64,000 bases of DNA, taken from Chloroflexota bacterium (GTDB taxonomy: Bacteria > Chloroflexota > Dehalococcoidia > Bin125). A program made the translations under genes and the position numbers. Positions 7,380 to 27,364 of this stretch are shown piece after piece (the first letter of the stretch is position 1; every line of letters begins with the position of its first letter). Under the pieces are notes generated by a model. The model was given only the letters and a program-made list of their open reading frames with translations, was not told where the DNA came from and did no database searches. The stretch covers positions 74,446 through 138,445 of the forward strand of contig JAPPBN010000026.1 in NCBI GenBank assembly GCA_026705025.1. Reading direction: 5' to 3'.

Positions 7380-7383
7380 GAGC

Positions 7384-7427
7384 CCCCTCCGTCACTTCGT
7401 GACACCTCCCCCGGAGGGGGAGGTCCT
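7384..7427. repeat. palindromic intergenic repeat, family A (gtcacYYcgtgac + ctcccccNggagggggag)
   Basis: two adjacent short hairpins; second copy at 8836..8913. Confidence 0.6.
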
Positions 7428-7429
7428 GA

Positions 7430-8209
7430 TTAGCGAGCGGTGTAGCCGCCGTCGACGGGCAGCGCGATGCCATTGACGAAGCTGGCGTCGTCGGAAGCGA
7501 GGAAGGCGGCGGCGGCGGCGATCTCCTCCGGTTGTCCCAGGCGACCCAGCGGATGCAGGGAGGCGAGGAACTCCTCGGCGCCTTCCATGTCCTTGATCTG
7601 AGCGGTCATCGGCGTGTGGATGTAGCCGGGACAGATCGCATTGACCCTCACTTTGCGCGGGCCGTAGGTCACGGCAAACTGTCGGGTGATGCCGATCACT
7701 CCGTGTTTGGCGGCCACGTAGGCTCCGGCGCCTTCCTCGACCTCCATATCGAGATCGCGGGTCGAGGCGCCGCTGACCAGGCCGTTGAGTCCGGCGATCG
7801 AGGCTGTGTTGATGATCGACCCGCCACCGCGTTCCGCCAGCAACGCCGCTCCGTGGTAGGTGCCGTAGTAGACCCCGCTCAGGTTGACGTCAATAGTCCG
7901 ATCCCAGCCGTACTGGCTGCCGCCGATGCCGGCGTTGTTGAACAGCACGTCGAGACCGCCGAGCACCTGGACGGTCTGCGAGAGCGCGTCCTTGACGGCG
8001 TCCTCCGAGGTGACGTCCAGCTCCATCGTTGCTGAGCGGCCGCCGTGCTCGGCGATCTGCGCGGCGGTCGTCTGGGCGCCTTCGGCGTTGATATCGGCGC
8101 ACATTACCGCGGCGCCCTCCGACGCCATGCGCAGCGCCGAGGCCCGTCCGATTCCCGATCCGGCGCCGGTGATCAGCGCGACGCGTCCTTCAAGTCGATC
8201 GATTGCCAT
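7430..8209 (-). CDS. SDR-family NAD(P)-dependent oxidoreductase
   Basis: 259 aa; TGAGSGIGRA Rossmann motif, YxxxK active site. Confidence 0.85.
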   Translation of the reverse strand: MAIDRLEGRVALITGAGSGIGRASALRMASEGAAVMCADINAEGAQTTAAQIAEHGGRSATMELDVTSEDAVKDALSQTVQVLGGLDVLFNNAGIGGSQYGWDRTIDVNLSGVYYGTYHGAALLAERGGGSIINTASIAGLNGLVSGASTRDLDMEVEEGAGAYVAAKHGVIGITRQFAVTYGPRKVRVNAICPGYIHTPMTAQIKDMEGAEEFLASLHPLGRLGQPEEIAAAAAFLASDDASFVNGIALPVDGGYTAR

Positions 8210-8334
8210 TGTTGAAACCCCTCACTGTCAGCCTGTGGTGTTCGGGCAGTCTACGTCTGCAACCAACGTATTGCCCCGGTCTGGCAGTAGGCTGCGCAGT
8301 GTGACAACGACGAACCCACTCTGAGGAGAGCAAG

Positions 8335-8817
8335 ATGCCGATTGCTGCTGGAGACTCTTTGCCCGACGTGAACGGGACCGTGATTGCCGATGGGCGACCG
8401 GGGCCGGTGAATCTACGTGAGCTGGTAGGGGACAAGAAGACGGTGATCTTCGGTGTTCCCGGGGCGTTTACGCCGACCTGCACGAATGACCACCTGCCGA
8501 CCTTTGCCGCCTCTGCCGACCAGCTGGCAGCGGCGGGGATTGAGCAGACGATCTGCATGTCGACCAACGACATCTTCGTGCTGCAGGCTTGGAACGCGGC
8601 GCATGGGGCGGATCACATTGTGATGCTGGCCGACGGTTCGGGAGACATCACCCGAGCGATGGACATTGGGCTCGACCTGTCGGGTCTGGGACTCGGATTC
8701 CGCTGCACTCGGTTCGCCATGCTGGTCGAGGGCGGCGTGGTCAAGGCGTTCCAGACTGAGGAGAACCCCGGGACCTGCGCGATGACCTCGGCGGCGGCGA
8801 TCCTCGAGCACGCCTAA
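8335..8817 (+). CDS. peroxiredoxin (Prx5-like, AhpC/TSA family)
   Basis: 160 aa; FGVPGAFTPTCT peroxidatic-Cys motif; AGGAGAG SD. Confidence 0.85.
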   Translation: MPIAAGDSLPDVNGTVIADGRPGPVNLRELVGDKKTVIFGVPGAFTPTCTNDHLPTFAASADQLAAAGIEQTICMSTNDIFVLQAWNAAHGADHIVMLADGSGDITRAMDIGLDLSGLGLGFRCTRFAMLVEGGVVKAFQTEENPGTCAMTSAAAILEHA

Positions 8818-9930: not shown

Positions 9931-10380
9931 CGGTCGGCGTCCGCTCGAATGGCGTCGGCGACAGCCTCGCCGAGTTGGGCCTGGGACTCGGGGATGATCA
10001 CGATGCCGGTGGTGATGAAGGTGTTGACGTTGTCGTCGGTGCCGCCGACAACGACGTAGTCACCGGGTTGGACGTCGTCGGTCCAGATGGGGAGCATGGC
10101 TTCGACGATCGAGTCGTCGCTGAAATGGATGGTTCGGAGGGCGTCGCCGACGCGGATGACCCAGCCGCCGTCGGCGCGCTCGGTGACGAACCCGCTGAGG
10201 TCTCCGGCGGGGGCGCCGTCGCTGCCGATCCGGCGTTGCTGATCGACCTCGTAGACCTGCACGACATCCTGCTGCTCGGGCGCGCCCCACTGGAATCCGG
10301 CGCCGAGGGCGGCGGCGAAGACGATCCCGGCGAGCGGGATGATCAGGAGACGTGAGGCGTAGCCGTTGAGTCGTTCGCGC
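9927..10380 (-). CDS. secreted/membrane-anchored hypothetical protein, paralog of 9394..9930
   Basis: ORF extends to 10931 but its upstream part reads through repeat C1; a TTG at 10380 gives (M)RERLNGYASRLLIIPLAGIVF signal anchor. Start uncertain. Confidence 0.4.
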
Positions 10381-10445
10381 AACGAGCTTGAGTTTCTGCT
10401 GCTGTTCTTGCGTCTACAGCGTGGGAGCTGATGTTGTGCTTTCGG

Positions 10446-10545
10446 ACCCCCCTCTGCCTTCGGCATCTCCCCCCGCTCCGCGGGGGGAGAAGGGGAATGC
10501 GAGGGTCTTGAACGCGGAGAGGGCGGACCGGAGTCCGCCCTCTCT
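10446..10545. repeat. palindromic intergenic repeat, family C (ccctctgccttcggcatctccccccgc-N4-gcggggggaga) plus second hairpin
   Basis: 10-bp GC stem; copies at 13263..13315, 23766..23845, 56534..56580 (inverted). Confidence 0.7.
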
Positions 10546-10567
10546 GGTTGGTTCGCGGACTTCTCCG

Positions 10568-12682
10568 TTAGACGGAGAGCGCGTCGGCGACGTCGCTGAG
10601 TCCGATTGACTCGAGCTTTTCGCGGCTGGGGAGACAGGTCTCGGTGTCCCAGTCGCAGGCGTTGAGGAAATCGGTCTCGAGGGTTTCGATGTCGAGGATG
10701 ACATCGGCCAAGGGTCCGGTCTTCTGGACGGTGCCCTCGCCGCCCCAGAGGCGCGGCGGCGCGAAGCGCTCGCGCGGGTTGTCGCCCTCGCGGACGGTGA
10801 AGGCCATGCGCAGGTTGGAGATGCGCTCGCCGGCGAGCTGCAGGTCTTCGCCGCTGAGGTCCCAGCCGGTGACGGCGTTGATCCACTGCGGGAAGCGGTC
10901 GGTCGGAGCGGCCATCATGATGAACTGGCACATGCCGGTCGAGTTCGTGATGTGCATGTACTCCGAGGCGCCCTTGTGGTGCTCGCCGCGGTTGTTGTAG
11001 TCCTTGAAATCGCGAGGCGCTGCCGGGTACTCCGGACCGCCGAAGCGCGAGTTGCCCTCGTACTGCGTGTGACGGGCCGGGGTTGGGTCGAGCTTGTAGG
11101 TCGTCCAGTACTCGGGCTGGAGCTTCGAGTCGTGCATCGGCAGTTCCTGGCCGCCGACGTCGGTGCGGAACTCCTGGGCGCGGTTGTCGCCGTTCTGCTC
11201 GTCGATCTTGGCAGCCGCGACCTGCATGCCGTCGGCGAGCAGGTCACCGAAGCCTTCGCGCTTGCCGATCAGGTGGAGCATCTCCATGATGCCGTCGTCG
11301 TTGCTCCAGGTGAGCTCGACGCCGCCGGTGTCCTCGAGGTCGATCAGACCGTTCTCGAAGCACTCGATGGCGAAGGAGATCGTGGTGCCGGCGCCGATGG
11401 TGTCGAGGCCGTACTCGTTGCACCAGTGGTTGGCGGCCTGCAGCATGTCGATGTTGCAGGTCAGGTTCATGGTGCCGAAGGAGGCGACGGTCTCGTACTC
11501 GGCGCGGTGGGTGTCGACCGGGTACTTGAAGACGCCCTTCTCGTGCTCGGCCTCGGCGAAGCCCGGCGCGACCGTGCCGTGGGGCGATTCGATCGACTCG
11601 GCGCCACAGGCCATCGGGCAGCGCCAGCAGCCGTAGCTCTTGTGGCGGACGGCCTTGCCGTTGACGTCGACCGCGCGCGGCGCTGGTGTGTGGTCGGGGT
11701 CGATCGGCGGCATGCCGGTCGCGGGGTCGATTTCGAGTTCGGCGTGGGTCATGCGTGTGGCGTTGAACATCATGCCAGACATCTCGTCGACCTCAGGGAG
11801 GACGTCGATTCCAACACCGCCCCAGTTGCGGACCGGGGAGTCGCCATTGTGGGCAGAGCCGGTGCTGATGCCGGTGGTGCCGAAGCCGGCGAAGAAGTCG
11901 CGCAGGGGCGCGATGAACTCGTTGCGGGACTGGCGGGCGAGTTCGCGGACGCCAGTGTCGCGGCCGAGCATGTTCTCGCGCGGGGTACCGCCGGCGCGAA
12001 CGACGACGGCCTTGACCTTCTTGGAGCCCATGACGGCGCCGACGCCGGAGCGGGCGGCGAGCCGGCCGTGCTCGTTGCAGATGCCGGCGAGGTAGGAGAG
12101 CTGCTCACCGGAGGGGCCGATGCAGGCGACCGAGGTCTTCTTGCCGTACTTCTCTTTGAAGGCGTTCTCGACCTCGATTGCGCCCTGGCCCCAGTATTCC
12201 GTGGCGTCCTCAATCGAGACGTCGTCGCCGTCGATGAGGATGTAGACGGGGTTGTCGGCCTGACCGTAGAAGAGGATGCCGTCCCAGCCGGCGAACTTCA
12301 GGTAGGGGCCAAAGTCGCCGCCGCAGTTGGCGTCGCCCCAGCCGCCGGTCGAGGGCGACTTGCAGACAGCCTGGAAGCGGTTACCGAAGATCGGCGTACC
12401 TGTCAGCAGGCCGGGCATGAGGCCGAGGACGTTGTCGGGGCCGAGCGGGTCGGCGCCAGCGGGGATGCGGTCGAAGAGCAGGCGCGCGCCGATGCCGTAA
12501 CCACCGAGGTAGTCCTTGTACATCTGCTCGGGAATGTCTTCGCGGTCGACGCTGCCGTCGTTCAGGCGGACGTTGATGATTTTGCCGTTGTAGGCGACTT
12601 CATCGGGGCTCCATTCGCGATCGGCGAAGGGGTCAGCGGTTTCCGCTGCGTCGCCGTTTTCCGCGCCAGGAACGTTAGCCAT
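10568..12682 (-). CDS. aldehyde:ferredoxin oxidoreductase (tungsten-containing AOR family)
   Basis: 704 aa from ATG 12682 (AAGGAGA SD 6 nt upstream; longest ORF to 12727). AOR N-terminal domain plus Cys motifs for the 4Fe-4S/tungstopterin site. Confidence 0.85.
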   Translation of the reverse strand: MANVPGAENGDAAETADPFADREWSPDEVAYNGKIINVRLNDGSVDREDIPEQMYKDYLGGYGIGARLLFDRIPAGADPLGPDNVLGLMPGLLTGTPIFGNRFQAVCKSPSTGGWGDANCGGDFGPYLKFAGWDGILFYGQADNPVYILIDGDDVSIEDATEYWGQGAIEVENAFKEKYGKKTSVACIGPSGEQLSYLAGICNEHGRLAARSGVGAVMGSKKVKAVVVRAGGTPRENMLGRDTGVRELARQSRNEFIAPLRDFFAGFGTTGISTGSAHNGDSPVRNWGGVGIDVLPEVDEMSGMMFNATRMTHAELEIDPATGMPPIDPDHTPAPRAVDVNGKAVRHKSYGCWRCPMACGAESIESPHGTVAPGFAEAEHEKGVFKYPVDTHRAEYETVASFGTMNLTCNIDMLQAANHWCNEYGLDTIGAGTTISFAIECFENGLIDLEDTGGVELTWSNDDGIMEMLHLIGKREGFGDLLADGMQVAAAKIDEQNGDNRAQEFRTDVGGQELPMHDSKLQPEYWTTYKLDPTPARHTQYEGNSRFGGPEYPAAPRDFKDYNNRGEHHKGASEYMHITNSTGMCQFIMMAAPTDRFPQWINAVTGWDLSGEDLQLAGERISNLRMAFTVREGDNPRERFAPPRLWGGEGTVQKTGPLADVILDIETLETDFLNACDWDTETCLPSREKLESIGLSDVADALSV

Positions 12683-12945: not shown

Positions 12946-13869
12946 TTAGGAGGTGTTCGCGGTTGTTTGGGCGAGGAGGGCGTCTCTTTTTTCTACGAGG
13001 CGCAGGGCTTCTTGGCGTTGGGGGTGCCAGGGGTTGTGCTGGGGGTAGTCGTTGAGCCAGTCTCGGTGGCGGAGGGCGTCCTGGAGCTGTCGTTCGACTT
13101 CGTTGAGGGCCTGTTGGAGTTCGGGTGGGGCTGATTTTTCGTCGGAATTGGCTGAAGTGGCGTCCTGGGCTGGGTTTGGGGTGGATTCCTGTTCGGTCTT
13201 GTTCGGTACTGTTCGGGTGGGATCGCTTGTTTGGGGTATGGAACTGGTCGCGGGTTGCGGGGAGCCCCCCTCTGCCTGCGGCATCTCCCCCCGCGGAGCG
13301 GGGGGAGAAAAGGGATCGCGGGCGTTGGTTTGCTTTTCAGGATTGGCTTGCGGAGGTTGTCCTGTCTGATCCTGTCTTGGTTCGGGGATGAAGGCGAGCG
13401 GTTGGTCGGGGTCGGGGTCTTCGGGGGCGGGTGTGGGTTGTTGCATCTGTTGGGTTTCTTCGGGGGTGGGCGGGTGCAGGCGGTCGGCTTTGGGATAGCG
13501 GGCGCCGTAGCGGTCGACGGCGACTCCGCCCTGGAGGAGCTCGGCGGAGCGGTCTGATTCGTCGCGGCGGATCTGGGGGAGAGCGGAGAGCAGCAGGCGC
13601 AGTTCGTGCAGGTCGGCGCGGCGCTGGTCGTGGAGGGGGTCGTCGGGGTCGCTGAAGTGGATCAGGTGGTCGACGATCTGGTCGGCGGCGAGTTCCTGGA
13701 TCAGGTCTGAGCGGAAGAGTTCGTAGTCCCTGAGATAGGCGTGGACGGTGGAGACGGAACAGTGCATGCGCTGGGCGATCTGGCGCATGGTGAGTCCCTG
13801 CATGCGGAGCTGCTGGGCCTCGAGGATGCGGGCGCGCCGGGCGGGGTTGGGGTATTGGGGGAAGGACAT
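12946..13869 (-). CDS. HTH-domain protein (sigma-70 region-4-like / transposase-type HTH) with low-complexity C-terminus
   Basis: N-terminal ~130 aa (ILEAQQLRMQGLTMRQIAQRMHCSVSTVHAYL) looks like a real HTH. The C-terminal P/Q/E-rich part reads through repeat C2; true 3' end uncertain. Confidence 0.5.
   Translation of the reverse strand: MSFPQYPNPARRARILEAQQLRMQGLTMRQIAQRMHCSVSTVHAYLRDYELFRSDLIQELAADQIVDHLIHFSDPDDPLHDQRRADLHELRLLLSALPQIRRDESDRSAELLQGGVAVDRYGARYPKADRLHPPTPEETQQMQQPTPAPEDPDPDQPLAFIPEPRQDQTGQPPQANPEKQTNARDPFSPPAPRGEMPQAEGGSPQPATSSIPQTSDPTRTVPNKTEQESTPNPAQDATSANSDEKSAPPELQQALNEVERQLQDALRHRDWLNDYPQHNPWHPQRQEALRLVEKRDALLAQTTANTS
13263..13315. repeat. palindromic repeat, family C
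   Basis: ccctctgcctgcggcatctccccccgcggagcggggggagaaa. Confidence 0.7.
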
Positions 13870-14000
13870 GTTCGGCTGCTCCTTGGTTGAAGGTTGGACG
13901 GTTTCTTACATCGTATGTATGTTCTGATGGATTGGCGTTGATGGGGTTGTGTTGCTGTTGACGTTGGGGAGAAGCGCGGGGCGTCGGGTTGGGATACCGC

Positions 14001-14118
14001 GGGGCCCTCACCCCAACCCTCTCCCTCAGGGAGAGGGGGCCGGAAGGGGGATCGCGGGCTGGGCCCCGCATCGAGTGCGGGGCATCGGAAGGGAGAGCGC
14101 GCGGGGCATCGGAGGGGG
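14001..14118. repeat. palindromic repeat, family B plus ccccgcatcgagtgcgggg hairpin
   Basis: ggccctcaccccaaccctctccctcagggagaggggg; the downstream hairpin also occurs at 23795..23815. Confidence 0.7.
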
Positions 14119-14269
14119 GGAGGGGTGGGAGGGGTGTGCGTAGTGGGTGACGGATGTAGGGGTGGGTGGGGAGATGTTTCGCGTAGCGCGAAGGGTTTCT
14201 GGGTCGTAGCCTGTCTGAGGTTGGAGTGAGGGTGCGGTTGCTCGCGACACGCTCGGCAGTTAACGACGT

Positions 14270-15664
14270 ATGAGACAGCTCCGGCAGACGTTTGCGGCCT
14301 TTGTGGTGCGCGATTTCCGTTACATGTGGGGCGGTTCGCTGCTGTCGGTGACGGCGTTCATGACGTCGTTTTCATTGATTCCGTCGGTCGCGTATGAGCT
14401 GACGGGGAGCTACACGGCGGCCGGGATCGCGATGCTGGGGTCGGGGATCTCACAGACGCTGCTGGGGCCGATCGGCGGGGTGATTGCGGACCGATATCGG
14501 AAGAAACCGTTGGTGGTGGCGGGGCAAGCGATGCCGGGCATTCTGCTCGGCGCGCTGGGCACGCTGATTGTGACGGATCACATTAGTGTGCCGCTGCTGG
14601 TCGTGGCGACGCTGGTGATGGGCGCGGGATTCGCGTTGATGGGTCCGGCGCGTCAGGCCTGGACGGGGTTCATCGTGCCTCGGCGGTTGCTGCCCAATGC
14701 AGTGGCGCTGCAACAGATGTCGATGAATACCGGGCAGGTGCTGGGGCCGACGCTGATCGCGGTGTTCGCGGCCTTCATGGCGCTGGAGGGACGCAACACG
14801 GGAATTCTGTTCCTGGTCGTGGCGTCGTTCTTCGCGTTCGTATTGCCAATGACGGCGTCGATCCGAACCGAGGGACCTGCCACCCCTGTTGATCAGCGCC
14901 GGTCGATGCGAGTCGAACTGCTCGAAGGGTTCCGGTATCTGCGCGGCAATCCACGGCTGCGACACCTGTGGTTCTACTTCTCGCTGATGGTCGCCTGCGG
15001 TTGGGGCTTTCAGACGTTGCTGCCCGGCATCCTGGCGCAGGAGTTCGGGCGGGCGCCAACGGATGTCGGCGCGACCTACATGATTTTCGGGGTTTCCTCG
15101 CTCGTGATTAACATCGTGCTGGCGGGGGCCGTCTCAGGGCGCTGGGCCTGGCCGCTGCTGATGATCATGGGCCTGGTCATGGCCGTGGGCTTCTGGCTGG
15201 TGGCGATTGCGCCGAGCTACGGCGCGTTCCTGATTCTGGGGGCATTCATCGGCACCGGCCGGTCGGGGACGATGCTGGTCAACCAGTCGCTGATGATGGG
15301 CAACACCAAGCCGGCCTATTTCGGCCGGGTGATGTCGTTTGCGATGATGGCCTTTGGATTCCAGGCGCTGTTCGGCCCGGTCTGGGGCGGGATCGCCGAC
15401 GTGGTCGGCGGTCCTCAGACGATGGCTCTGATCGGTGTGATTGCAGCCGGAGCGACGGCGTTCATGTTTGTCGGCTGGCTGCGGACGCGAAACCTGCCGC
15501 TTGAAGCCGGGACGGCCGCCGCCAGCATGGGGCGGCGGATAGGTACGGCGGTGCAGCGTCCAGCACCTGCGTCGGAGTCTGCCAACGGTGTCGAGGGGCA
15601 ACCGGCGTTCGCCGCGCAGCTTGCGCCAGTCGCGCTGATGGATCCACAGAAGGTTCGGCAATGA
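14270..15664 (+). CDS. MFS transporter, MFS_3/EntS-like family, array unit 1
   Basis: 464 aa, ~12 TM; conserved C-terminal tail PAFAAQLAPVALM..QK; stop overlaps next start (ATGA). Confidence 0.85.
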   Translation: MRQLRQTFAAFVVRDFRYMWGGSLLSVTAFMTSFSLIPSVAYELTGSYTAAGIAMLGSGISQTLLGPIGGVIADRYRKKPLVVAGQAMPGILLGALGTLIVTDHISVPLLVVATLVMGAGFALMGPARQAWTGFIVPRRLLPNAVALQQMSMNTGQVLGPTLIAVFAAFMALEGRNTGILFLVVASFFAFVLPMTASIRTEGPATPVDQRRSMRVELLEGFRYLRGNPRLRHLWFYFSLMVACGWGFQTLLPGILAQEFGRAPTDVGATYMIFGVSSLVINIVLAGAVSGRWAWPLLMIMGLVMAVGFWLVAIAPSYGAFLILGAFIGTGRSGTMLVNQSLMMGNTKPAYFGRVMSFAMMAFGFQALFGPVWGGIADVVGGPQTMALIGVIAAGATAFMFVGWLRTRNLPLEAGTAAASMGRRIGTAVQRPAPASESANGVEGQPAFAAQLAPVALMDPQKVRQ

Positions 15665-17079
15665 ACCGACCGTCCGGCCGCTTCGGCGGCGCATTCGAGT
15701 CCTTTGGGCACCGCAACTACCGCCTGCTGTGGGGCGGCTCGCTGCTCTCGACGACGGCGTTCATGACGACGTTCCTGCTGGTGCCGATCGTCGGCTATGA
15801 GATCACGGGGTCGTATGCGCTGTCGACGCTGGCGCAGATGGGCAGCGGCCTGTCGATGTTCTTCCTGGGACCGCTGGGCGGAGTGATCGCGGATCGGTAT
15901 CCGAAGAAGCCGCTGGTGCTGGCGGGTCAGATTTTTCCGGCGCTGCTGATCGTGGGCACGGGGATCATGATCGTGACCGGGATCATCACGATTCCGTTGC
16001 TGTTCCTGGCGACGCTGATGATGGGCTTCGGGTTTGCGCTGATGGGTCCGGCGCGTCAGGCATGGCTGGGCGAGCTAATCCCGCGTCGGCTGCTGGGCAA
16101 CGGCGTGGCGCTGCAGCAGATGTCGCAGAACATGGCGCGCGTGCTCGGCCCGATGCTGGGGTCGATCGCGGTGTTCTTCGGCGTGTCGTCGGGGGCGCTG
16201 TACCTGTCGGTGGCGGGGCTGTTCCTGATCGTCGTGCCGCTAACGACGATGTTGCCGCGCACGAGGCCGCCGCACCAGGAGGGCGATCAGCCGCGGCGGA
16301 CGGCGATGGGCGACCTGATCCACGGGTTTGCTTACCTGCGCTCGAACCGGCGTCTGCGGCTGCTGTGGCTGTACTGGATGGTGATTGTCGTTTGCGGGTT
16401 CTCGGTGAACGCGCTGACGCCGGGGATTATGGATCGGGAGTTTGGGCGGTCGGCGCAGGAGGCGTTCATCGTCTTCCTGCCGTTCGGGATTTCGTCGGTG
16501 TTGATCAGCATTCCGCTGGCAGGGCTTATGAGCGGTCGGTTTGCGTGGCCGTTGCTGCTGATCTTCGGGCTGGCCTCGTCGGTGACGTTGTGGGCGTTTG
16601 CGATCGCGCCGACGTTCGAGACGTTGATCCTGCTGGCTCTGCCGGTGGGGGCGGCGACATCGGGTGTGATGTTGATCAACATGTCGCTGATGATGACGAA
16701 TTCGCGGGCCGAGTACTTCGGTCGGGTGATGTCGTTCATCATGCTGGGCTACGGGATGCAGTCGGTGATGGCGCCGGTGTGGGGCGGGTTGGCGGAATGG
16801 CTGGGCGGCCGTGAGGCGCTGATCGCCGTGGGTGTGGTGGCGTTGTTTGCGACGGTGTTGATGACGTTCGGCTGGTTGCGAACTCGTCATTTGCCGCTTG
16901 AACTGGGGACAGCGGCTGCGGACGAGGAGCCGGAACGCGCCAGAGCGTCGAGTCCGCGTGTGACCCGGCAGCCGGTGCCGGCGTTCGCGTCTCAGGTTGC
17001 GCCGGTTGTGTTGATGGGCGCGCAGAAGCCTCCAGGCGGGAGCGGCGAATTGCCTCGTCTCGCGGCGGGCGGCGATTGA
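15661..17079 (+). CDS. MFS transporter, MFS_3/EntS-like family, array unit 2
   Basis: 472 aa; ~70% identical to unit 3 over the N-terminal half; tail PAFASQVAPVVLMGAQK. Confidence 0.85.
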   Translation: MNRPSGRFGGAFESFGHRNYRLLWGGSLLSTTAFMTTFLLVPIVGYEITGSYALSTLAQMGSGLSMFFLGPLGGVIADRYPKKPLVLAGQIFPALLIVGTGIMIVTGIITIPLLFLATLMMGFGFALMGPARQAWLGELIPRRLLGNGVALQQMSQNMARVLGPMLGSIAVFFGVSSGALYLSVAGLFLIVVPLTTMLPRTRPPHQEGDQPRRTAMGDLIHGFAYLRSNRRLRLLWLYWMVIVVCGFSVNALTPGIMDREFGRSAQEAFIVFLPFGISSVLISIPLAGLMSGRFAWPLLLIFGLASSVTLWAFAIAPTFETLILLALPVGAATSGVMLINMSLMMTNSRAEYFGRVMSFIMLGYGMQSVMAPVWGGLAEWLGGREALIAVGVVALFATVLMTFGWLRTRHLPLELGTAAADEEPERARASSPRVTRQPVPAFASQVAPVVLMGAQKPPGGSGELPRLAAGGD

Positions 17080-18443
17080 TGCGTCGGAGCTTCGCGGCGT
17101 TCGGGGCTGGTAACTATCGGTTGTTGTGGGGCGGCACGCTGTTTTCGACGATGGCCTTCATGACCAGCTTTCTGCTGGTACCGATCGTGGCGTATGAGAT
17201 CACCGAGTCGTACGCGGCCTCGGGGTTTGCTCAGATGGGCAGCGGCGTCTCGATGCTGTTACTGGGTCCGATTGGCGGCGTGATCGCCGACCGTTACTCG
17301 AAGAAGCCGTTGGTGATGATCGGCCAGATCGTTCCGGCGCTGCTGATCGTGGGCACCGGCGTGTTGGTCGTGACCGGTCTGATCACGATCTGGATGCTGT
17401 TCGTCTCCAGCCTGCTGATGGGGGTGGGTTTTGCGCTGATGGGTCCGGCGCGGCAGGCATGGATGGGCGAGCTGATTCCACGGTCGCTGATGGGCAGCGG
17501 GGTCGGCCTGATGCAGGTGGCGCAGAACCTGGCGCTGGTGCTGGGGCCGATGCTGGGGTCGGTGTTGCTGATCGCGTTTGCGCTTGGCTCCGGACAGATC
17601 TACTTCCTGATTGCGGGGTTCTTCCTGGTCGCGCTGCCGTTGACCACCTGGTTGCCGAATGCGCCGGCGACGGCCGTGGCCGGGCGTCGATCGATTGCGC
17701 GCGAACTGGGGTCGGGGTTCAAGTACCTGATGGACAGTCCGCGGTTACGCATGCTGTGGGCCTTCTGGATGGTGATTACCGTCTGCCGGTTCTCGGCGCA
17801 GGTGCTGCTGCCGGGGTACATCGAGCGGAACTTCGGGGTTCCGGCGAGTGACATCTTCCTGCTGTATCTGGTTGTGGGCGTGGTTTCTCTGATCGCCAAT
17901 GTGCCGCTGGCGGGGATGGTGTCGGGACCGCGAGCCTGGCCGTTGTTGATCGGATTCGGGCTGCTGTTGTCGCTGGTCTTCGTGTTCGCCTCGCTGGCGC
18001 CGTCATTTTCCGCGATGATGCTGCTGGCGATTCTGGTCGGAATCTCGTCGAGCGGCGTTCTGCTGGTGAACCAGGCGCTGATCATGACCAACTCGCGGCC
18101 TGAGTTTTTCGGGCGGGTGATGTCGTTCGTGGTGCTCGGGTTCGCCGCGCAGTCGTTGCTTGGTCCGATCTGGGGGGTGAGCGCCGACGCGATCGGCGGG
18201 CGCGAGACGATGTTCGTGGTCGCGATGATCGTGCTCGGCGCAACCGTGACGCTGGGCGTTGGCTGGCGTCGCACGCGTCGCTTGCCGCTGGACGCGGGCA
18301 CTCCGGCCGCCCTTGCGGCTGCGGGGACCTCTCTGGGCTCGCGTCGATTGGCGCCGACTCCGGCGTTCGCCAGGCAGCTTGCGCCGGTCGTGCGGATGGG
18401 CAGGCAGAAACAACGGACGACGCCGCTTCCGGGCGGCGACTAG
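17076..18443 (+). CDS. MFS transporter, MFS_3/EntS-like family, array unit 3
   Basis: 455 aa; start overlaps the upstream stop; tail PAFARQLAPVVRMGRQK. Confidence 0.85.
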   Translation: MMRRSFAAFGAGNYRLLWGGTLFSTMAFMTSFLLVPIVAYEITESYAASGFAQMGSGVSMLLLGPIGGVIADRYSKKPLVMIGQIVPALLIVGTGVLVVTGLITIWMLFVSSLLMGVGFALMGPARQAWMGELIPRSLMGSGVGLMQVAQNLALVLGPMLGSVLLIAFALGSGQIYFLIAGFFLVALPLTTWLPNAPATAVAGRRSIARELGSGFKYLMDSPRLRMLWAFWMVITVCRFSAQVLLPGYIERNFGVPASDIFLLYLVVGVVSLIANVPLAGMVSGPRAWPLLIGFGLLLSLVFVFASLAPSFSAMMLLAILVGISSSGVLLVNQALIMTNSRPEFFGRVMSFVVLGFAAQSLLGPIWGVSADAIGGRETMFVVAMIVLGATVTLGVGWRRTRRLPLDAGTPAALAAAGTSLGSRRLAPTPAFARQLAPVVRMGRQKQRTTPLPGGD

Positions 18444-18452
18444 GCTCGAGCG

Positions 18453-21278
18453 ATGACCAGACTCAGCGTCACCTTTGCGGCGCTCGCGGTTCCGAACTTC
18501 CGCCGCCAGTGGATTGCTTCGACGCTGGCGACGACGGCGTTCATGACGACGTTCGTGCTGGTGCCGATCGTGGCGTACCAGTTGACCGGCTCGTACGCGG
18601 CTTCGGGGTTTGCGGCGATGGGGAATGGCGTGGGGATGCTGTTCCTGACGCCGCTGGGCGGGGTGGTGGCGGATCGGTTCCCGAAGAAGCCGATCGTGCT
18701 GATGGGTCAGTATTCGACGTTGGTGGTGATCGCCGGCACCGGCGTACTGATCGCGACTGACTTGATCACAATCCCATTGCTCTTTGCCTCGACTCTGCTG
18801 AGCGGGGCCACATTTGCGCTGACCGGTCCAGCTCGCCAGTCGTGGGTGGCAGAGCTGGTGCCCGGCCGGCTCGTGCCCAACGCAGTCGCGTTGCAACAGA
18901 TGGGGATCAACATCGCCCAGGTGCTGGGGCCGACCCTCGCCTCGGTCGCGGTAGTCGCATTCAACGTGAATGCCGGCGGCGTGTACCTCGGAATCTCCCT
19001 GGTCTTCTTGATTGTCGTCCCGCTCAACCACCTCCTGCCTCGGACGATGCCCAAGGTCGTCGAGCGGCGATCGCCGCGGCGGGAGCTGGCGGACGGCTTC
19101 CACTATCTGCGACGCAATCCGCGGCTGCGGATTCTGTGGGTGTTCTGGCTCGTGATCGTGATTTGCGGATTCGCGATCCAGACGTTGATGCCGGGCATTC
19201 TGGACCAGGAGTTCTCGCGCTCTTCCGACGAAGCCGTGCTGATCAATGCGATCTTTGGGATATCCGCGCTCGCGATCAATCTGCCATTGGCTGGCCTGGT
19301 CGGCGGTCGGCTGGCCTGGCCGCTGTTGCTGGGCACGGCGATCCTGATGGCCGTTGGTCTGTGGATGGTGGCGTGGGCTCCGACATACGGACTGGTGCTG
19401 ATCCTGAGCGCCGTGGCCGGGGCGGGACGCTCGGGGGTGATGCTCGTCAACCAGGCGATCATGATGTCGAACACGAAGCCCGAGTACTTCGGCCGCGTGA
19501 TGGCCTACGTGCTGATGGCGTTCGGATTGCAGTCGATCACCGCGCCGGCCTGGGGCATCATCGCCGACGTTATCGGCGGTCGGGAGACGCTGCTGCTGGT
19601 CGGCGTGATCGTGGTTGGGGCGACCGCGCTGATGTTCCTCGGTTGGGTTACGACGCGGCGGCTGCCGCTCGAAGTTGGGACGGCCGCCGCCACGGTGGCG
19701 AACGCGTCGGGGCAACCGGAAGTCGAGACCGAACCGAGGACTGCTCCAAGCCCTGCGTACAGCCCGCTGTTTGCTGCGCAGGTTGCGCCGATCGTGCTGA
19801 TGGAGGGGCAGAACCGCGAGCCGCAATCCCGAGCGGCGATTAGCCTGAGGCTAATGAATCGCCTGCGGGATACCTTCGCCTCGCTCGCCGTGCGGGACTA
19901 CCGGCTGCTGTGGATCGGGTCGTTGATGGCGACGACGGCCTTCATGACCACGTTTTACCTGGTGCCGATCGTGGCCTACGAGATCACAGGTTCTTACGCC
20001 GCGTCGGGGTTCGCACAGGCCGGCATGGTTGCCCAACTCGTGCTGGGACCGTTTGGCGGCGTGATCGCCGACCGCTACAAGAAGAAGCCGCTGGTGCTGG
20101 GCAGCCAGATCATCCCTTGCGCGATCATCGTCGTGACCGGGATCCTGATCGTGAGCGACAGCATCACGATCCCGTTGCTATTCGGCTCGACCTTCCTGAT
20201 GGGCGGGACGTTCTCGTTGATGGGTCCGGCGCGGCAGTCGTGGGTCGTGGAGCTGGTGCCGCAGCGGCTGCTGCCCAACGCTGTCGCGTTGCAGAACATG
20301 TCGATCAACATCGCGGCCGTGATCGGGCCGGCGCTGGCCGCGATTCTCGTCGTCTCGATGGGCCTCAACTCGGGCATTCTCTACATGCTGGTGGCGGTGC
20401 CGTTTGTGATCGTGATCCCCCTGACGTTGATGATCAGCGGCAGCGGGCGGGCCACGCCTCCGGAGGAACGCAAGGCGATGGCGACCGAGATGCTGGCCGG
20501 CCTGACCTACATCACGCGGCGGCCAAACCTGCGCAGCCTCTGGTTGTTCTGGACGCTGATCGTGGTCACCGGATTTGCGCTGCAGACGCTGGTACCGGGC
20601 TTGCTGGACCAGGAATTCGGTCGGTCCGAGAGCGAGGCGCTGATTATTGGCACGATCTGGGGGGTGACGGCGTTGCCGATCAACATCATGCTGGCCGGGA
20701 TGGTCGGCGGACGCTGGGCCTGGCCGCTGCTGTTCCTCTCGGCGCTGGCGCTGGCCGGCGGCATCTGGCTGACTGCCTGGTCGCCGGTTTACGCGGTGCT
20801 GCTGATCGTCTCGGCGATCGCCGGCGGGGCGCGGTCGGCCGTGATGCTGCTCAACCAGGCGATCATGATGACGAACACGCGGCCCGAGTACTTCGGACGT
20901 GTGATCAGCTGGGTGTTCATGGCCTTTGGTCTGCAGGGCATCCTGGCGCCGGTCTGGGGGATCGTGGCTGACGCGATCGGCGGTCGGGAGACGCTGTACA
21001 TCGTGGGTCTGGTGGTTGTGGCCGGGACGATTCTGATGGCGTTGTCAAGGGCGCGGAATCGGCGGATTCCACCGGAGCCCGGGACGGCGGCCTACTCGAT
21101 CGCAGGTTTCGGCGGCGAACAGCCTCCCGAGCCTGAGCCTCGATTAGTCCCGTCCGAGCCGAGAACCGCTCCGAGCCCGGCGATCAGTCCGCTGTTTGCG
21201 GCTCGCCTGGCGCCGGTGGTGCTGATGGAGGGTCAGAAGCCGCGTTCTGCAGGGCCTGCGATCTCCGGCGGCGACTAG
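18453..21278 (+). CDS. tandem-fused double MFS transporter (array units 4+5 in one 941-aa ORF)
   Basis: Two complete 12-TM MFS_3 domains. The second begins at in-frame ATG 19854 (MNRLRDTFASLAVRDY..). No stop in the junction ...MEGQNREPQSRAAISLRLMNRL... Confidence 0.75.
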   Translation: MTRLSVTFAALAVPNFRRQWIASTLATTAFMTTFVLVPIVAYQLTGSYAASGFAAMGNGVGMLFLTPLGGVVADRFPKKPIVLMGQYSTLVVIAGTGVLIATDLITIPLLFASTLLSGATFALTGPARQSWVAELVPGRLVPNAVALQQMGINIAQVLGPTLASVAVVAFNVNAGGVYLGISLVFLIVVPLNHLLPRTMPKVVERRSPRRELADGFHYLRRNPRLRILWVFWLVIVICGFAIQTLMPGILDQEFSRSSDEAVLINAIFGISALAINLPLAGLVGGRLAWPLLLGTAILMAVGLWMVAWAPTYGLVLILSAVAGAGRSGVMLVNQAIMMSNTKPEYFGRVMAYVLMAFGLQSITAPAWGIIADVIGGRETLLLVGVIVVGATALMFLGWVTTRRLPLEVGTAAATVANASGQPEVETEPRTAPSPAYSPLFAAQVAPIVLMEGQNREPQSRAAISLRLMNRLRDTFASLAVRDYRLLWIGSLMATTAFMTTFYLVPIVAYEITGSYAASGFAQAGMVAQLVLGPFGGVIADRYKKKPLVLGSQIIPCAIIVVTGILIVSDSITIPLLFGSTFLMGGTFSLMGPARQSWVVELVPQRLLPNAVALQNMSINIAAVIGPALAAILVVSMGLNSGILYMLVAVPFVIVIPLTLMISGSGRATPPEERKAMATEMLAGLTYITRRPNLRSLWLFWTLIVVTGFALQTLVPGLLDQEFGRSESEALIIGTIWGVTALPINIMLAGMVGGRWAWPLLFLSALALAGGIWLTAWSPVYAVLLIVSAIAGGARSAVMLLNQAIMMTNTRPEYFGRVISWVFMAFGLQGILAPVWGIVADAIGGRETLYIVGLVVVAGTILMALSRARNRRIPPEPGTAAYSIAGFGGEQPPEPEPRLVPSEPRTAPSPAISPLFAARLAPVVLMEGQKPRSAGPAISGGD

Positions 21279-21401
21279 CTCGCGGCCGGAGCGGGAGCTT
21301 TTGCATCGGAAACCCAGGCAGTTTCCTCTCCCGCGGAAATCCCTCTCTTCGGAGCTAGACTTGCTCCCGTTGTGCTGATGGAGGGTCAGAAACCGCGGTG
21401 A
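21279..21401 (+). pseudogene. relic: duplicated MFS C-terminal tail (..EIPLFGARLAPVVLMEGQKPR*) in frame after the stop of 18453..21278
   Basis: The 26 nt gtgctgatggagggtcagaaaccgcg match the tail of the upstream gene at 25/26 positions. TGA overlaps the GTG start of the next MFS gene. Confidence 0.5.
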
Positions 21402-22741
21402 GCGAGCCGCCAACGCCAGCCGTTCTCCGGCAGCAGCCAGTGCTGCCCGAGTTTCCCTCGTCGCCGGGCCTTTGGCGAACTCCCGGCTATCGATGGCTCT
21501 GGATCGCCACCCTCTTGCTCGGCACCGGGTACGGTGTCACCTTGTCCAGTCAAGCCTCCTTCTGGGACGAAACGGCGTTCGACTCGACGACGATTGCATT
21601 TGTTGGTCTGAGTAATGGAATCGGAATCTTGTTTGGGTACCTGCTGGCCGGGCTGACCGCGGATCGCCGTCCAAAGCGGTCACTGGTCCGGATTCAGGTG
21701 CTGGCAACGGCCGGGTTGTCCGCGCTCACTGCGGTCCTCGCGCTCGCCATCGGGTTGGCAGGAGACTGGTTCTTCGTATTGGCGGTGTTGTTTGGCGTTG
21801 CACACGGCGCGGCGTTCGCTGTGATGCTCGGTTGGACCGCAGAGATACTTCCCCGACGGTTGATTGCCAAGGGCGTGATTGTCGTGGCCCTCGCGGGCTA
21901 CGCGCAGACGCTCTTGACAGTGGTTCCCGGCGTGTCTGTCCGCGGCGAACCGAGCGCTGTGTTCTGGTTCTTCGCAGTTGCCTGCTTGGCTTACCTGCTG
22001 ACTGCATTGGCAGTCAGGAAGGTTCCTGCTTTGACTCCAGTCTGTGCCGACACCAGCACGATCGGGGAGCTTCGGCTCGCATTGAGGTACTTATGGGGCG
22101 ACGTTCGGCTCAGGTCGCTCTGCGCTTATGCCCTGGGTGCCAGCGCGGCGATGACATTTGCGGAAGCAGCCATTCTGCACCTGTTGTGGGTAGAACATGG
22201 CTTTCGCTCCTGGGACTACACGCTTCCGTTCATAGCTCGGGGCGGGGCCTACTTCGTGTCGACGCTCGCGCTCGTCTTTCTCATTAGCAGCCGCCACCGA
22301 TGGTTGTTGTTCGTCGTGGCGGCAGTGTTGCTAGGGATCGCTGTCGCGCTGCTTGCTGCATCATCCGTGGTCGCCACACTGACGATGCTTATGGCCCTCG
22401 TGGGCTTGGCGTCTCCGATCGTACTGATCGGTTATCGGGCGCTGGGACTGTCGGTTACCCGTTCCTTGTTCTTCGGTCGCGTTGCGGCTCTAATGTTGTT
22501 CGTGGATAGTCTGCTGGATTTTGCAGCGGGATTTCTCCGGGTACACCTCTTCGATCTACTCAACGGACGCATCGCGGTCCTGACGTGCGGATTGTTGCTC
22601 ACTCTGTTGGCATTTTGGTTTTGGACCCGGTGGCGCCGTTTCCGATTCCTGAGTGAAGATCCAGATGTTACCGAGACCGATGTGCCGAGGAATCTGTTGT
22701 TGAATGCCGTAGCGCCGCAGAAGACTGCCCGGCTGGACTAG
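21398..22741 (+). CDS. MFS transporter, divergent member of the array (unit 7)
   Basis: 447 aa, ~12 TM; GTG start; tail ...LLNAVAPQKTARLD retains a trace of the array tail motif. Confidence 0.75.
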   Translation: MSEPPTPAVLRQQPVLPEFPSSPGLWRTPGYRWLWIATLLLGTGYGVTLSSQASFWDETAFDSTTIAFVGLSNGIGILFGYLLAGLTADRRPKRSLVRIQVLATAGLSALTAVLALAIGLAGDWFFVLAVLFGVAHGAAFAVMLGWTAEILPRRLIAKGVIVVALAGYAQTLLTVVPGVSVRGEPSAVFWFFAVACLAYLLTALAVRKVPALTPVCADTSTIGELRLALRYLWGDVRLRSLCAYALGASAAMTFAEAAILHLLWVEHGFRSWDYTLPFIARGGAYFVSTLALVFLISSRHRWLLFVVAAVLLGIAVALLAASSVVATLTMLMALVGLASPIVLIGYRALGLSVTRSLFFGRVAALMLFVDSLLDFAAGFLRVHLFDLLNGRIAVLTCGLLLTLLAFWFWTRWRRFRFLSEDPDVTETDVPRNLLLNAVAPQKTARLD

Positions 22742-23712
22742 TCCGCCTGGGCGAGTTCTCCGAGGAAGGCCCGGGTTCTGGTGATGTGGGATTCGGCGTC
22801 GTCGACGAGGACGACGATGGCGGCGAGCATTTCGTCGACTCCGTAGTTGTCGTGCATTGAGCGGACGCGGTCTCCGACCTCCGACTCTGAGCCGCTGACA
22901 ATCAGCGCGTCGGCCATGCGATCGGTGAAGTCCCGGCCGGCGGCTTCGTCGTAGCCGGCGTCCTGGAGCATCTGCGAGTAGTAGGGCAGGCGTTGGTAGA
23001 AGCCGAACTGGCGTCGGGCGGCGGCGTGGATCGCTTCTGTGTCCTCGCTCAGGATGATCGGCGTGTGGACGACCATCTGAGGCCGGCCGCGTCCGGCGAG
23101 GTCGGCGCCGGCCTGCTGGGCAGGCAGGGCGACATCGCGGATGTAGGGCAGGGGCGACATCCAGGAGATGCCGCCAGCGGTGATCTCACCGGAGAGCGAC
23201 CAGGCCTTCTCGCGCAGCGCGGAGATCATCGTCTGCACCTGTGTCGGTCCGCCGGGCAGCTGGGCGCGGGCGGTGATCAGTTCGCCTTCGTGGTTGACTT
23301 CGCCCTCTTCAAGCAGCGCGCGGCAGATGTCGACGTATTCGCGCAGGTGGGAAAGCGGCTTGTGGAAGGGCATGCCCCAGGTGCCTTCGATGGCGGGTTT
23401 GTGGGAGGGGCCGAGGCCGAGGATCATGCGTCCCGGGGCCATCTGGTCGACGCTGGCTGCGCCCTGGACCATGGAGATCGGGTGGCGCGGGTAGGTGGGC
23501 ACGATCGAGGTGCCGAAGGTGATTCGATCCGCTCCCGAGAGAGCAGCGCCGACGAAGACGGCGAACGGGTCCGGGGCGGGGCCGCCGACGGTCAGCCAGG
23601 CGGTGTCGAGTCCGTCGCGGTCGGCGGCGACGATGCCGTCGATCAGGGCGGGGGCGCCCATCATCTGGATGTTCTGGAGCGCGATGTGTACGCCGATGCG
23701 CATGTTCTTCAT
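22738..23712 (-). CDS. LLM-class (luciferase-like) flavin/F420-dependent oxidoreductase
   Basis: 324 aa; TIM-barrel LLM family pattern. Confidence 0.8.
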   Translation of the reverse strand: MKNMRIGVHIALQNIQMMGAPALIDGIVAADRDGLDTAWLTVGGPAPDPFAVFVGAALSGADRITFGTSIVPTYPRHPISMVQGAASVDQMAPGRMILGLGPSHKPAIEGTWGMPFHKPLSHLREYVDICRALLEEGEVNHEGELITARAQLPGGPTQVQTMISALREKAWSLSGEITAGGISWMSPLPYIRDVALPAQQAGADLAGRGRPQMVVHTPIILSEDTEAIHAAARRQFGFYQRLPYYSQMLQDAGYDEAAGRDFTDRMADALIVSGSESEVGDRVRSMHDNYGVDEMLAAIVVLVDDAESHITRTRAFLGELAQAD

Positions 23713-26431: not shown

Positions 26432-27364
26432 GTGTCCATGCGACTTACCGTTGAGTTTCCCTCCGTGATCCACCGAGACGGCCCCACCGAGATCGCCCGG
26501 CTGGCGAGCGCGATCGAGGAGATCGGCTACGACGAGATCGACATTTTTGATCATGTGATCAACGGGTATCAGATTGAGGGGCGCGATCCGGCGCCGTATC
26601 CGGCGACGATGCCGTTGCTGGAGGCGTTGGTCACGCTGGGCTACATCGCCGCGGTGACCGAGCGGGTCGGACTGGGGACCGAGGTCCTCGTCTTGCCGCA
26701 GCGACAGCCGGTGCTGGCGGCGAAGCAGTTCAGCACGATCGATACGCTGTCGGGCGGGCGTTTGCGAGTCGGGGTCGGCGTGGGCTGGCAGGAGTCGGAG
26801 TATGACGCGCTGGGCATGGACTTCCGCACGCGCGGGCGAGCGATGGATGAGGCGATTGCGTTGATGCAGGCCTGCTGGCGCGACGAGACGATTGAGTTTG
26901 GCGGGGAGCATTTTCAGGCGGAGTCGATGGCGATGGAGCCGAAGCCGCCGCAGGGCGGCGGGATCCCACTGTGGATCGGCGGCGGCTCCAAAGCAGCGCT
27001 GCGGCGAGCCGGTCGGGTAGGCGACGGCTGGATGGCCTCAGGCATGCTGGGCTCGCAGGGAGCGGAGGCGATTGCCGAGGTGAAGCGGGAGGCGGAGGAG
27101 GCGGGTCGCGATCCGGATGCGCTGGGCTTCCAGTGTCAGCTGGCGACGCCGCCGCGGGCGGGCGACCCGTCGACGCGGGAGTACTGGGCGCGGATCCCGG
27201 ACGTGGCCGCGACGGCGGCAGCGGCGCAGGAGGCTGGCTTCGGCTGGGCGGCGGTGAACGTGACCGGCGTGTTCGTGGCGGGGGCGCGTTCGATCGACGC
27301 GATGATCGAGCAACTTGGCCTGCTGCACGACGCGATCCGGGCGGAAACGGGCCGGGACGAATAA
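26432..27364 (+). CDS. LLM-class F420-dependent oxidoreductase (TIGR03619-like)
   Basis: 310 aa; luciferase-like TIM barrel, typical LLM N-terminus. Confidence 0.8.
   Translation: MSMRLTVEFPSVIHRDGPTEIARLASAIEEIGYDEIDIFDHVINGYQIEGRDPAPYPATMPLLEALVTLGYIAAVTERVGLGTEVLVLPQRQPVLAAKQFSTIDTLSGGRLRVGVGVGWQESEYDALGMDFRTRGRAMDEAIALMQACWRDETIEFGGEHFQAESMAMEPKPPQGGGIPLWIGGGSKAALRRAGRVGDGWMASGMLGSQGAEAIAEVKREAEEAGRDPDALGFQCQLATPPRAGDPSTREYWARIPDVAATAAAAQEAGFGWAAVNVTGVFVAGARSIDAMIEQLGLLHDAIRAETGRDE

Follow-up and report, generated by a model that had tools for sequence, protein, structure and literature searches.

A tandem array of related MFS permease genes with a family-exclusive C-terminal tail at one chromosomal site in Dehalococcoidia

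A stretch of 64,000 nucleotides (nt) from a Chloroflexota bacterium of the class Dehalococcoidia (contig JAPPBN010000026.1, positions 74,446 to 138,445), referred to here as the window, carries at 14270-22741 on its + strand five consecutive open reading frames (ORFs) that encode six units of the major facilitator superfamily (MFS). The first five units, U1 to U5, are close paralogs and all end with a conserved C-terminal tail, and U6 is a distant MFS protein. Orthologous arrays in related species differ in copy number, and the tail is conserved at the protein level and confined to this family. The array is best read as the product of a birth-and-death expansion of permeases that act independently of one another and carry a tail older than the array itself, an explanation in which our confidence is somewhat better than even.

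MFS units of the array (lengths in amino acids, aa; TM, transmembrane segment).
14270..15664, + strand: U1, 464-aa 12-TM MFS permease; tail type LAPVALMDPQKxR(Q/S)-stop, with the stop 3-4 residues past the motif.
15661..17079, + strand: U2, 472-aa MFS permease; start overlaps the U1 stop (ATGA).
17076..18443, + strand: U3, 455-aa MFS permease; start TTG at 17076 or ATG at 17079; tail variant LAPVVRMGRQK.
18453..19853, + strand: U4, MFS permease; here the first half of a 941-aa ORF (18453-21278).
19854..21278, + strand: U5, 474-aa MFS permease; here the second half of the 941-aa ORF.
21398..22741, + strand: U6, 447-aa divergent MFS protein; start GTG; C-terminus ...AVAPQKTARLD.

Array architecture and age of the paralogs

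The five consecutive same-strand ORFs described in the original prediction, which was made from the sequence of the window, were found at 14270-15664, 15661-17079, 17076-18443, 18453-21278 and 21398-22741. Their tight coupling was likewise recovered, with the ATGA overlap at the U1/U2 junction, a U3 start that overlaps the U2 stop as TTGATG, and a 9-nt gap between U3 and U4. ORF translations and Pfam and NCBIfam scans gave six MFS units, not the seven first proposed. Pairwise protein identity within U1-U5 is 46-59%. Neighbouring units, thought to be 60-70% identical, share 47-59% (U1/U2 50%, U2/U3 57%, U3/U4 47%, U4/U5 59%), and U6 is only 21-23% identical to U1-U5. At the DNA level the repeat period is 1.38-1.40 kb and the copies of U1-U5 are 62-78% identical; where a conserved amino acid has four-fold-degenerate codons, paralogs share the third base in only 53% of pairs. 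Thus U1-U5 are old duplicates, as originally proposed, and neither a recent amplification nor a collapsed repeat. At least six assemblies independently reproduce the locus; 20 public contigs carry the exact U2 protein, and U2 of the window is 100% identical to that of the Chloroflexi metagenome-assembled genome (MAG) SB0664_bin_20.

The 941-aa ORF had been taken for a covalent dimer fusion, but DNA alignment with conspecific assemblies revealed a single difference, the absence of one A between 19813 and 19814 of the window (CAGAAACCG to CAGAACCG). The deletion sits in a homopolymeric run of A, removes the U4 stop and joins U4 to U5. When the base is restored, U4 ends with ...LMEGQKPRAAIPSGD and a stop codon 10 nt ahead of the U5 ATG; a sister species reads CAGAAGCCG at this position. 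Four of the six conspecific assemblies listed (loci L001, L002, L004 and L006) encode U4 (463 aa) and U5 (474 aa) separately, with 10 nt between the two genes. The remaining two carry the 941-aa ORF, as does the window; the fused form was seen in three independent assemblies. U4 and U5 are also separate in other species where both are intact, contrary to what is expected of a natural two-unit (24-TM) fusion. The fusion is a homopolymer indel, either a strain polymorphism or a recurrent error, and not an evolved architecture. In an alignment built for the 941-aa ORF, every homologue fell on the first half and none on the second.

Synteny and copy-number variation

A protein search returned 257 matches at E up to 1e-10. 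The best 120 all carry MFS_3/MFS_1 domains, and those with a named source are from Chloroflexota. A scan of one genome per species found 55 loci (L-numbers), in which units were called by six-frame hidden Markov model searches and flanks by tblastn of the neighbouring genes. In most loci with flanking DNA, the array lies between an AFOR gene and an F420-type LLM gene. A divergent AFOR-family gene stands upstream; downstream are a convergent F420-type LLM oxidoreductase gene, a lactonase-like metallo-beta-lactamase gene and an MscS gene. L039 and L040 are exceptions, with the AFOR gene downstream of the array.

At this orthologous site the number of units varies from 1 to 7 across about 50 Dehalococcoidia MAG species, several of which are sponge-derived; the highest number is found in L036. 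Best-hit analysis showed that the order U1-U2-U3-U4-U5 is collinear in many species, with orthologues 65-98% identical as against 46-59% for paralogs, and U1 orthologues hold the first position in 36 loci. Other arrays consist of U1 and U5 only, or of U1-U4-U5, U1-U2-U5 or U1-U2-U4-U5, so that U2, U3 and U4 are each missing somewhere. Frameshifted or truncated units were found (L013_u4, L022_u2, L026_u5), as was one extra orthogroup fully devoid of the tail (L011_u3, L023_u4, L035_u4). Since units are lost, frameshifted, truncated or tail-less across species, they are individually dispensable. In the deeper-branching L040 and L041, the units are equidistant from U4 and U5, which points to a stepwise expansion within the clade. 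Coupling is also the rule in other species: among 131 junctions there are 57 overlaps of 4 or 1 nt and 58 gaps of 0-15 nt (115/131 together).

The SB, RHO, IRC and PNGco bins and bin125 (L027) appear to derive from sponge metagenomes. The Entoporibacteria include other SB0664 and PNGco_C bins (PMC7883664). Bin125 was obtained from Aplysina aerophoba (PMC5649159) and names an order-level lineage of Dehalococcoidia (PMC10608941). Marine Dehalococcoidia of the SAR202 group have genomes rich in MFS transporters, luciferase-like monooxygenases, enolases and dehydrogenases, with 42 COG0477 proteins reported for strain JH545; the paralog expansions were read as a widening of the substrate range (PMC10444878). 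The likeness to SAR202 lies in the class and in the large MFS repertoires; the window, too, contains three LLM-class oxidoreductases and several dehydrogenases. However, the SAR202 figures are genome-wide counts from planktonic cultured strains, with no syntenic coupled tandem array or common tail (PMC10444878), whereas the array genomes with an identifiable source are sponge-associated MAGs. In the literature searched on Chloroflexi or sponge symbionts, we found no description of a tandem coupled MFS array or of the tail, in agreement with the original view that this organisation seems undescribed.

The C-terminal tail

The tail motif P-x-F-A-A-x-x-A-P-V-V-L-M-x-G-Q-K occurs in exactly six copies in the window, at the ends of U1-U5 and as an orphan in the U5-U6 gap, and thus nowhere outside the array. 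A tail had been ascribed to every unit; this is true of U1-U5, but U6 has only a vestigial A-P-Q-K and no full tail.

Copies of the tail motif in the window.
15602..15652, + strand: tail copy 1, PAFAAQLAPVALMDPQK (U1).
16978..17028, + strand: tail copy 2, PAFASQVAPVVLMGAQK (U2).
18360..18410, + strand: tail copy 3, PAFARQLAPVVRMGRQK (U3).
19764..19814, + strand: tail copy 4, PLFAAQVAPIVLMEGQ[K] (U4), with the frameshift at its 3' end.
21189..21239, + strand: tail copy 5, PLFAARLAPVVLMEGQK (U5).
21342..21401, + strand: orphan tail, PLFGARLAPVVLMEGQKPR followed by a stop, inside the 119-nt U5-U6 gap; its TGA overlaps the U6 GTG (GTGA).

Conservation of the tail was measured in 177 units from other species. 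The majority-residue fraction of the core P-x-F-A-A-x-x-A-P-V-V-L-M-x-x-Q-K is about 0.8 (Q 0.99, F 0.98, A 0.97, P 0.95), compared to 0.65 overall, and equals that of the best helices (TM1 and TM2, 0.82), so that the tail is indeed more conserved than much of the transmembrane core. The tail also has the highest share of columns invariant in all five orthogroups (7/17). It is separated from a juxtamembrane motif (R-T-R-x-L-P-x-E-x-G-T-A-A-A) by a linker of 19-41 residues, rich in Pro, Ala, Glu and Ser and as variable as originally described (majority-residue fraction 0.30). Between 1 and 18 residues follow the Q-K. The endings differ by type, with QKxRS-stop in U1, ...GGD-stop or ...SGD-stop in internal units and QKPR-stop in last units. 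U6-type proteins elsewhere, 26-45% identical to U6 of the window, all end near [AS]-P-Q-K.

Paralog nucleotide identity is 0.75 in the tail and 0.63 in the core, and third-base identity is 41/61 (67%) and 475/894 (53%), respectively. Wobble positions vary inside the motif in codon alignments; therefore selection acts on the peptide. Recent gene conversion of the tails was considered and rejected, third-base identity being far from the ~100% that it would leave. An AlphaFold2 model of U5, built on a 122-sequence alignment, gave a predicted local distance difference test score (pLDDT) of 43-58 for linker and tail, with a short helix at 446-456. As modelled, the tail would behave as a tethered linear motif rather than as a docked element.

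A tail-only profile searched against 1.84 billion representative proteins gave 7 matches at E up to 1e-3, all of them full-length members or C-terminal fragments of the same MFS family, and the motif is thus exclusive to the family. The tail and the C-terminal 64-72 aa gave no match to Pfam or to PDB sequences, both at E up to 10. The strict motif is present in 98 of the best 120 homologues (of 257), as anticipated for other genomes, and most of the others have a degenerate version. The nearest outgroup homologues (Acidimicrobiales/Actinomycetota, 48% identical, single-copy) lack both linker and tail. Moreover, L050, with a single unit, and L038, with two, both carry the tail. Together with the tail-less outgroup, these loci indicate that the tail arose in this Dehalococcoidia lineage before the array grew, and a tail that predates the array is not primarily a device for docking between paralogs.

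ProP and YajR are MFS transporters with regulatory C-terminal cytoplasmic extensions. The coiled coil of ProP and the C-terminal domain of YajR resemble the present tail in being cytoplasmic C-terminal additions to a 12-TM MFS core, dispensable for the fold. However, the tail described here is a 17-residue linear motif on a disordered tether, neither a folded domain nor a coiled coil, and its sequence is unrelated.

Orphan and hybrid tails

The relic tail noticed after U5 is the orphan copy at 21342-21401. In the sister species L011 and L022 the last unit abuts U6 by the same junction (QKPR-stop, GTGA), and the orphan copy thus represents the original junction with U6. The U5 tail of the window, which has the U4-type ...GGD-stop ending, sits on a 153-nt extra segment. 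The orphan differs from tail copy 5 by about 10 synonymous changes and one non-synonymous change; these synonymous-type differences reflect descent from a diverged unit and are no sign of current translation. The orphan tail is the remnant of a unit that was partly deleted or recombined. Readthrough from U5 into the orphan was rejected, since there is no upstream start codon and the tail is out of frame with the U5 stop in L007. A comparable loss was found in L046, where two units have given way, at 6638-8625, to an ORF of 450 aa with an HExxH motif (HEYAHLLL, ImmA/IrrE-like by eye) and another of 211 aa. There, the tail of a lost unit survives as a 64-aa ATG-initiated ORF that ends at the start of the next unit.

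Hybrid tails were also observed. In L013, whose array lacks U3 and U4, unit 2 (10016-11392) combines a U2 body with the U4-type ending QKPRAAISSGD. In the window (21240-21278), U5 has a last-type body with a ...GGD-stop ending. These hybrids suggest, from their sequences, unequal crossovers within conserved tail DNA; the tail may thus serve as a crossover point for unit loss, as a by-product.

Transporter family, fold and substrate clues

All units pass the gathering threshold of MFS_1 (PF07690; 33.4 bits), with 117.9 bits for U1, 102.9 for U2, 101.9 for U3, 238.8 for the U4+U5 ORF and 40.0 for U6. MFS_3 (PF05977; 27 bits) is passed by U1 (45.6), U2 (86.3), U3 (65.0) and U4+U5 (130.4), and U6 gives no match. 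MFS_1 outscores MFS_3 in every unit, and the MFS_3 profile is matched only at positions 3-405 of 524. The best NCBIfam models for U1-U5 are TIGR00900, EntS, Mef and Tet(V), with 50-180 bits against cut-offs of 320-870. The EntS model NF007792 (cut-off 324 bits) gave 49.8-75.4 bits per unit and 113.9 for the two-unit ORF; TIGR00900 (DHA3; cut-off 319.6 bits), with 92-110 bits per unit and 180 for the two-unit ORF, also fell short but is still the best specific model. No NCBIfam model matched U6. The original assignment to an EntS-like MFS_3 group therefore stands for U1-U5 as regards MFS_3, but not as regards EntS, and U6 is recognised by MFS_1 alone. Judged by these profile scores, U1-U5 are DHA3/MFS_3-like and not EntS. 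With the DHA3/MFS_3 branch (TIGR00900 2.A.1.21-type, PF05977; EntS, Mef(A), Tet(V)) they share the 12-TM fold and the motif A GGVIADRYxKKP. Unlike members of that branch, however, the array has no siderophore or antibiotic gene context, and its C-terminal linker and motif lie outside every library model.

Motif A (consensus G-x-x-x-D-R-x-G-R-K) is represented in the TM2-TM3 loop by GGVIADRY(P/K/S)KKP. G68, G69, D73 and K77 are invariant across 122 sequences, and R74 is conserved in at least 90% of them and is the majority residue in all five orthogroups. The AlphaFold2 model, made for U5 only, has a mean pLDDT of 89.8, a predicted template modelling score (pTM) of 0.84 and 12 long TM helices at pLDDT >90. 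A Foldseek search with this model returned VMAT2, NorA, G6PT and MdfA (probability 1.0, TMt 0.74-0.82, 12-18% identity), which are generic MFS antiporter-like folds. A whole-unit profile found nothing among PDB sequences at E up to 1e-3.

The conserved intramembrane charges are basic, R127 in TM4 and R327 in TM10. R127 is invariant. Midway along TM10, residue 327 (U5 numbering; codon at about 20832-20834) separates the orthogroups: U1, U4 and U5 have Arg, U2 and U3 have Thr. E43, at the outer end of TM1, is the sole acidic candidate and is replaced by Gln in the U4 orthogroup only. Residue 327 and E43 are candidate specificity or coupling switches. As far as can be judged from the alignment, R127 and R327/T327 hint that the organic substrates are anionic or polar and that the cavity has diversified.

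Proposed independent permeases and alternative readings

Dispensable units, fluid copy number and a tail carried by single units fit independent permeases better than an obligate hetero-oligomer. We propose that U1-U5 form a Dehalococcoidia-specific subfamily related to the DHA3/MFS_3 branch that, with the distant U6, would make up one co-expressed cluster. This cluster would have arisen by repeated tandem duplication at one fixed AFOR-LLM chromosomal site and would be maintained by birth-and-death evolution. Each unit alone would be a 12-TM secondary-active permease for one of several related small organic substrates. The original suggestion that the array exports a family of related substrates, widened here to transport in general, fits the data better than a hetero-oligomer does. 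The anatomy of the array, the paralogy, the synteny, the variation in copy number, the exclusivity of the tail and its conservation as protein are observed; independent unit action, substrate class, operon status and tail function are inferred. A single regulated promoter, marked by the conserved palindrome upstream of U1, would probably drive all units, which would be translated through stop/start coupling. The tail is a short linear motif, specific to the family, selected as a peptide and older than the array, at the end of a flexible and variable cytoplasmic tether. Most likely, all paralogs inherited it as a shared handle for regulation, for binding a partner or for anchoring at the membrane surface, and not as a means of joining them to one another. 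The docking or regulatory element suggested originally may likewise be its role. The 941-aa "dimer" is a 1-nt frameshift and the orphan tail a recombination or deletion scar.

Several observations weigh against independent permeases with a handle-like tail. The lasting collinear order of U1-U5 and their tight coupling are also expected of a multi-subunit system. Positions that are conserved within groups and differ between them are commoner in cavity helices (17%) than in peripheral ones (9%), a point in favour of independent permeases, but this enrichment is a trend only (Fisher p = 0.08). The orthogroup alignment showed none of the conserved intramembrane acidic residues typical of drug:H+ antiporters, which makes an assignment as exporter or antiporter (drug:H+) weak. 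A generic handle does not explain the near-invariant Q-K or the survival of A-P-Q-K in the divergent U6 family. Finally, orphan tails were kept just upstream of the next gene after two independent deletions (in the species of the window and in L046), and the tail could thus have a role in cis.

The hetero-oligomeric assembly put forward in the original prediction, in which the paralogs form a defined complex, the tails dock on neighbours and coupling sets the stoichiometry, seems to us improbable. It is supported by the orthogroup order, collinear across many species, and by the junctions, 115 of 131 of which overlap or leave a gap of at most 15 nt; the highly conserved tail stands on a flexible tether long enough to reach a neighbour, and the presence of the U4-U5 frameshift fusion in three independent assemblies is compatible with a tolerated 24-TM fusion. 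However, that fusion, which had prompted the idea, is only a 1-nt indel, the orthologous locus contains 1-7 units with U2, U3 and U4 each absent in some species, and intact units fully without a tail exist (L011_u3, L023_u4, L035_u4), while the tail is kept in L050 with one unit and L038 with two. The helices expected to form interfaces, the peripheral TM3, 6, 9 and 12, are the least conserved and have fewer paralog-specific conserved positions. Moreover, MFS proteins as a class generally act as monomers. It is also unlikely that the A-P...Q-K tail, kept even in the U6 family, is a recognition peptide that gathers or controls all co-translated paralogs. Such a peptide might act via a putative common cytoplasmic partner or by mutual binding, and would make the array one regulated "transport battery".

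Retention of the tail for reasons of nucleic acid, as a ribosome-binding or re-initiation context, by gene-conversion homogenisation or as a recombination site, is quite unlikely. The tail does lie 1-18 codons before the stop, hence close upstream of the next start, and the L-M-E-G codons ATG-GAG-GGN give GGAGGG 12 nt before the U6 GTG; in two lineages an orphan tail persists immediately ahead of the following gene, nucleotide identity is higher in the tail than in the core (0.75 vs 0.63) and third-base identity slightly so (67% vs 53%), and hybrid tails such as that of L013, with its U2 body and U4-type tail end, point to crossovers inside the tail. Yet the changes concentrate at wobble positions, as between the relic and tail copy 5 (about 10 synonymous, one non-synonymous), and last units that have no MFS gene behind them (L008-L010, L012) retain the motif, as does the single unit of L050. 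The U1-type tail (ATGGATCCACAG) has no GGAGG, and the spacing between the motif and the following start ranges from a few to about 60 nt. The tail might by analogy be a nascent-chain peptide of the translation-arrest kind, pausing the ribosome until TM12 is inserted and gating the next overlapping unit. In its favour, the conserved peptide is placed at a short, bounded distance from the last TM helix, 19-41 aa of linker past the juxtamembrane motif and about 55-60 residues beyond TM12, and a coupled start codon comes right after it; an invariant Pro and [QR]-x-A-P are part of it, and it is peptide-selected yet unstructured in the AlphaFold2 model. Its resemblance to the R-A-P/G-P cores of SecM and Apd-type arrest peptides is only loose. 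This explanation is very unlikely, as the tail matches no known arrest motif in sequence, the distance to the next start is inconsistent (1-18 codons), the motif persists where no gene follows and the U6 family keeps A-P-Q-K only. Finally, a mis-assembled or collapsed repeat might be suspected from the MAG origin and the ~1.4 kb repeat period, but is extremely improbable: the copies are only 62-78% identical in DNA, at least six independent assemblies contain the same array, and arrays also occur in complete chromosome-level assemblies of many related species. For U1-U5 we encountered none of the circumstances named beforehand as refuting the array, namely absence of the tail elsewhere, membership of unrelated subfamilies or an assembly artefact.

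If a birth-and-death expansion of independent permeases is the right explanation, the locus is a clean natural case of transporter birth and death at a fixed hotspot, in a lineage to which abundant uncultured sponge symbionts belong. Its positional orthogroups, the paralog-specific Arg/Thr switch in TM10 and the palindrome, as the one conserved control element, would be useful handles. Being compact and confined to the family, the tail could join domain libraries as a marker, and it is a tractable target for work on transporter regulation or localisation. The array is a real, clade-wide family expansion; it is no new class of machine and at present opens no long-standing question. Should the tail be a recognition peptide after all, it would represent an undescribed layer of organisation by short linear motifs for bacterial MFS transporters.

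Upstream element and genomic surroundings

Conserved features upstream of U1.
14178..14192, + strand: perfect 15-bp palindrome TTCGCG-TAG-CGCGAA (TTCGCGTAGCGCGAA), about 80 nt upstream of U1.
14206-14213: conserved GTAGCCTG, about 13 nt downstream of the palindrome.

These two elements form the sole conserved block in the 180-nt upstream regions of 21 species, the rest being unalignable. The palindrome has a single exact copy in the window. It is found once per locus in 36 of 61 loci, distant ones included, upstream of the first unit wherever positions were compared and mostly in the region common to the array and the divergent AFOR gene. It is a candidate operator or promoter of a single transcription unit; alternatively, it may act as an RNA hairpin. 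A promoter scan found no sigma-70-like promoter, terminator-like sites in the array are at chance level (11 vs 9.4 expected), and in Rfam (12-24 kb scanned, E up to 1) the only match was whalefall-1, at chance level and outside the array.

Between the AFOR gene and the palindrome, the window has an inserted HTH_23 gene (12946-13869, - strand; 307 aa), with an N-terminal HTH_23 match only and no NCBIfam match. It was considered as a regulator of the array and rejected, being sporadic across species, found in either orientation (opposite once) and 46-60% identical; it looks like a variable insertion. The segment between this gene and the array (13970-14115) contains three GCGGGGCATCGGA-like G-rich short repeats and a hairpin CCCTCTCCCT-CA-GGGAGAGGG. 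Similar pieces lie upstream of the arrays in L008, L010 and L011 and may belong to a REP- or MITE-like element (repetitive extragenic palindrome or miniature inverted-repeat transposable element).

The three LLM-class oxidoreductase genes of the window are located at 22738-23712 (- strand), 26432-27364 (+ strand) and 54506-55726 (+ strand). The first, F420-type by NCBIfam, converges on U6 and overlaps its 3' end by 4 nt; in most flanked loci this gene is found in synteny with the array. A further DHA3-like MFS gene at 35174-36721 (+ strand) encodes a 515-aa protein (TIGR00900, 146 bits) that is extended at its N-terminus by about 95 aa and lacks the tail motif. The ATP synthase cluster at 37756-45393 (+ strand) is unusual in that it includes a 517-aa a-subunit ORF, in which the ATP-synt_A match begins at residue 373, and a 552-aa alpha subunit; a HAD-family hydrolase gene stands between its gamma and beta subunit genes. 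At 60005-63403 (+ strand), a 1132-aa ORF combines biotin carboxylase, biotinyl carrier and carboxyltransferase domains in a single-chain acyl-CoA carboxylase.

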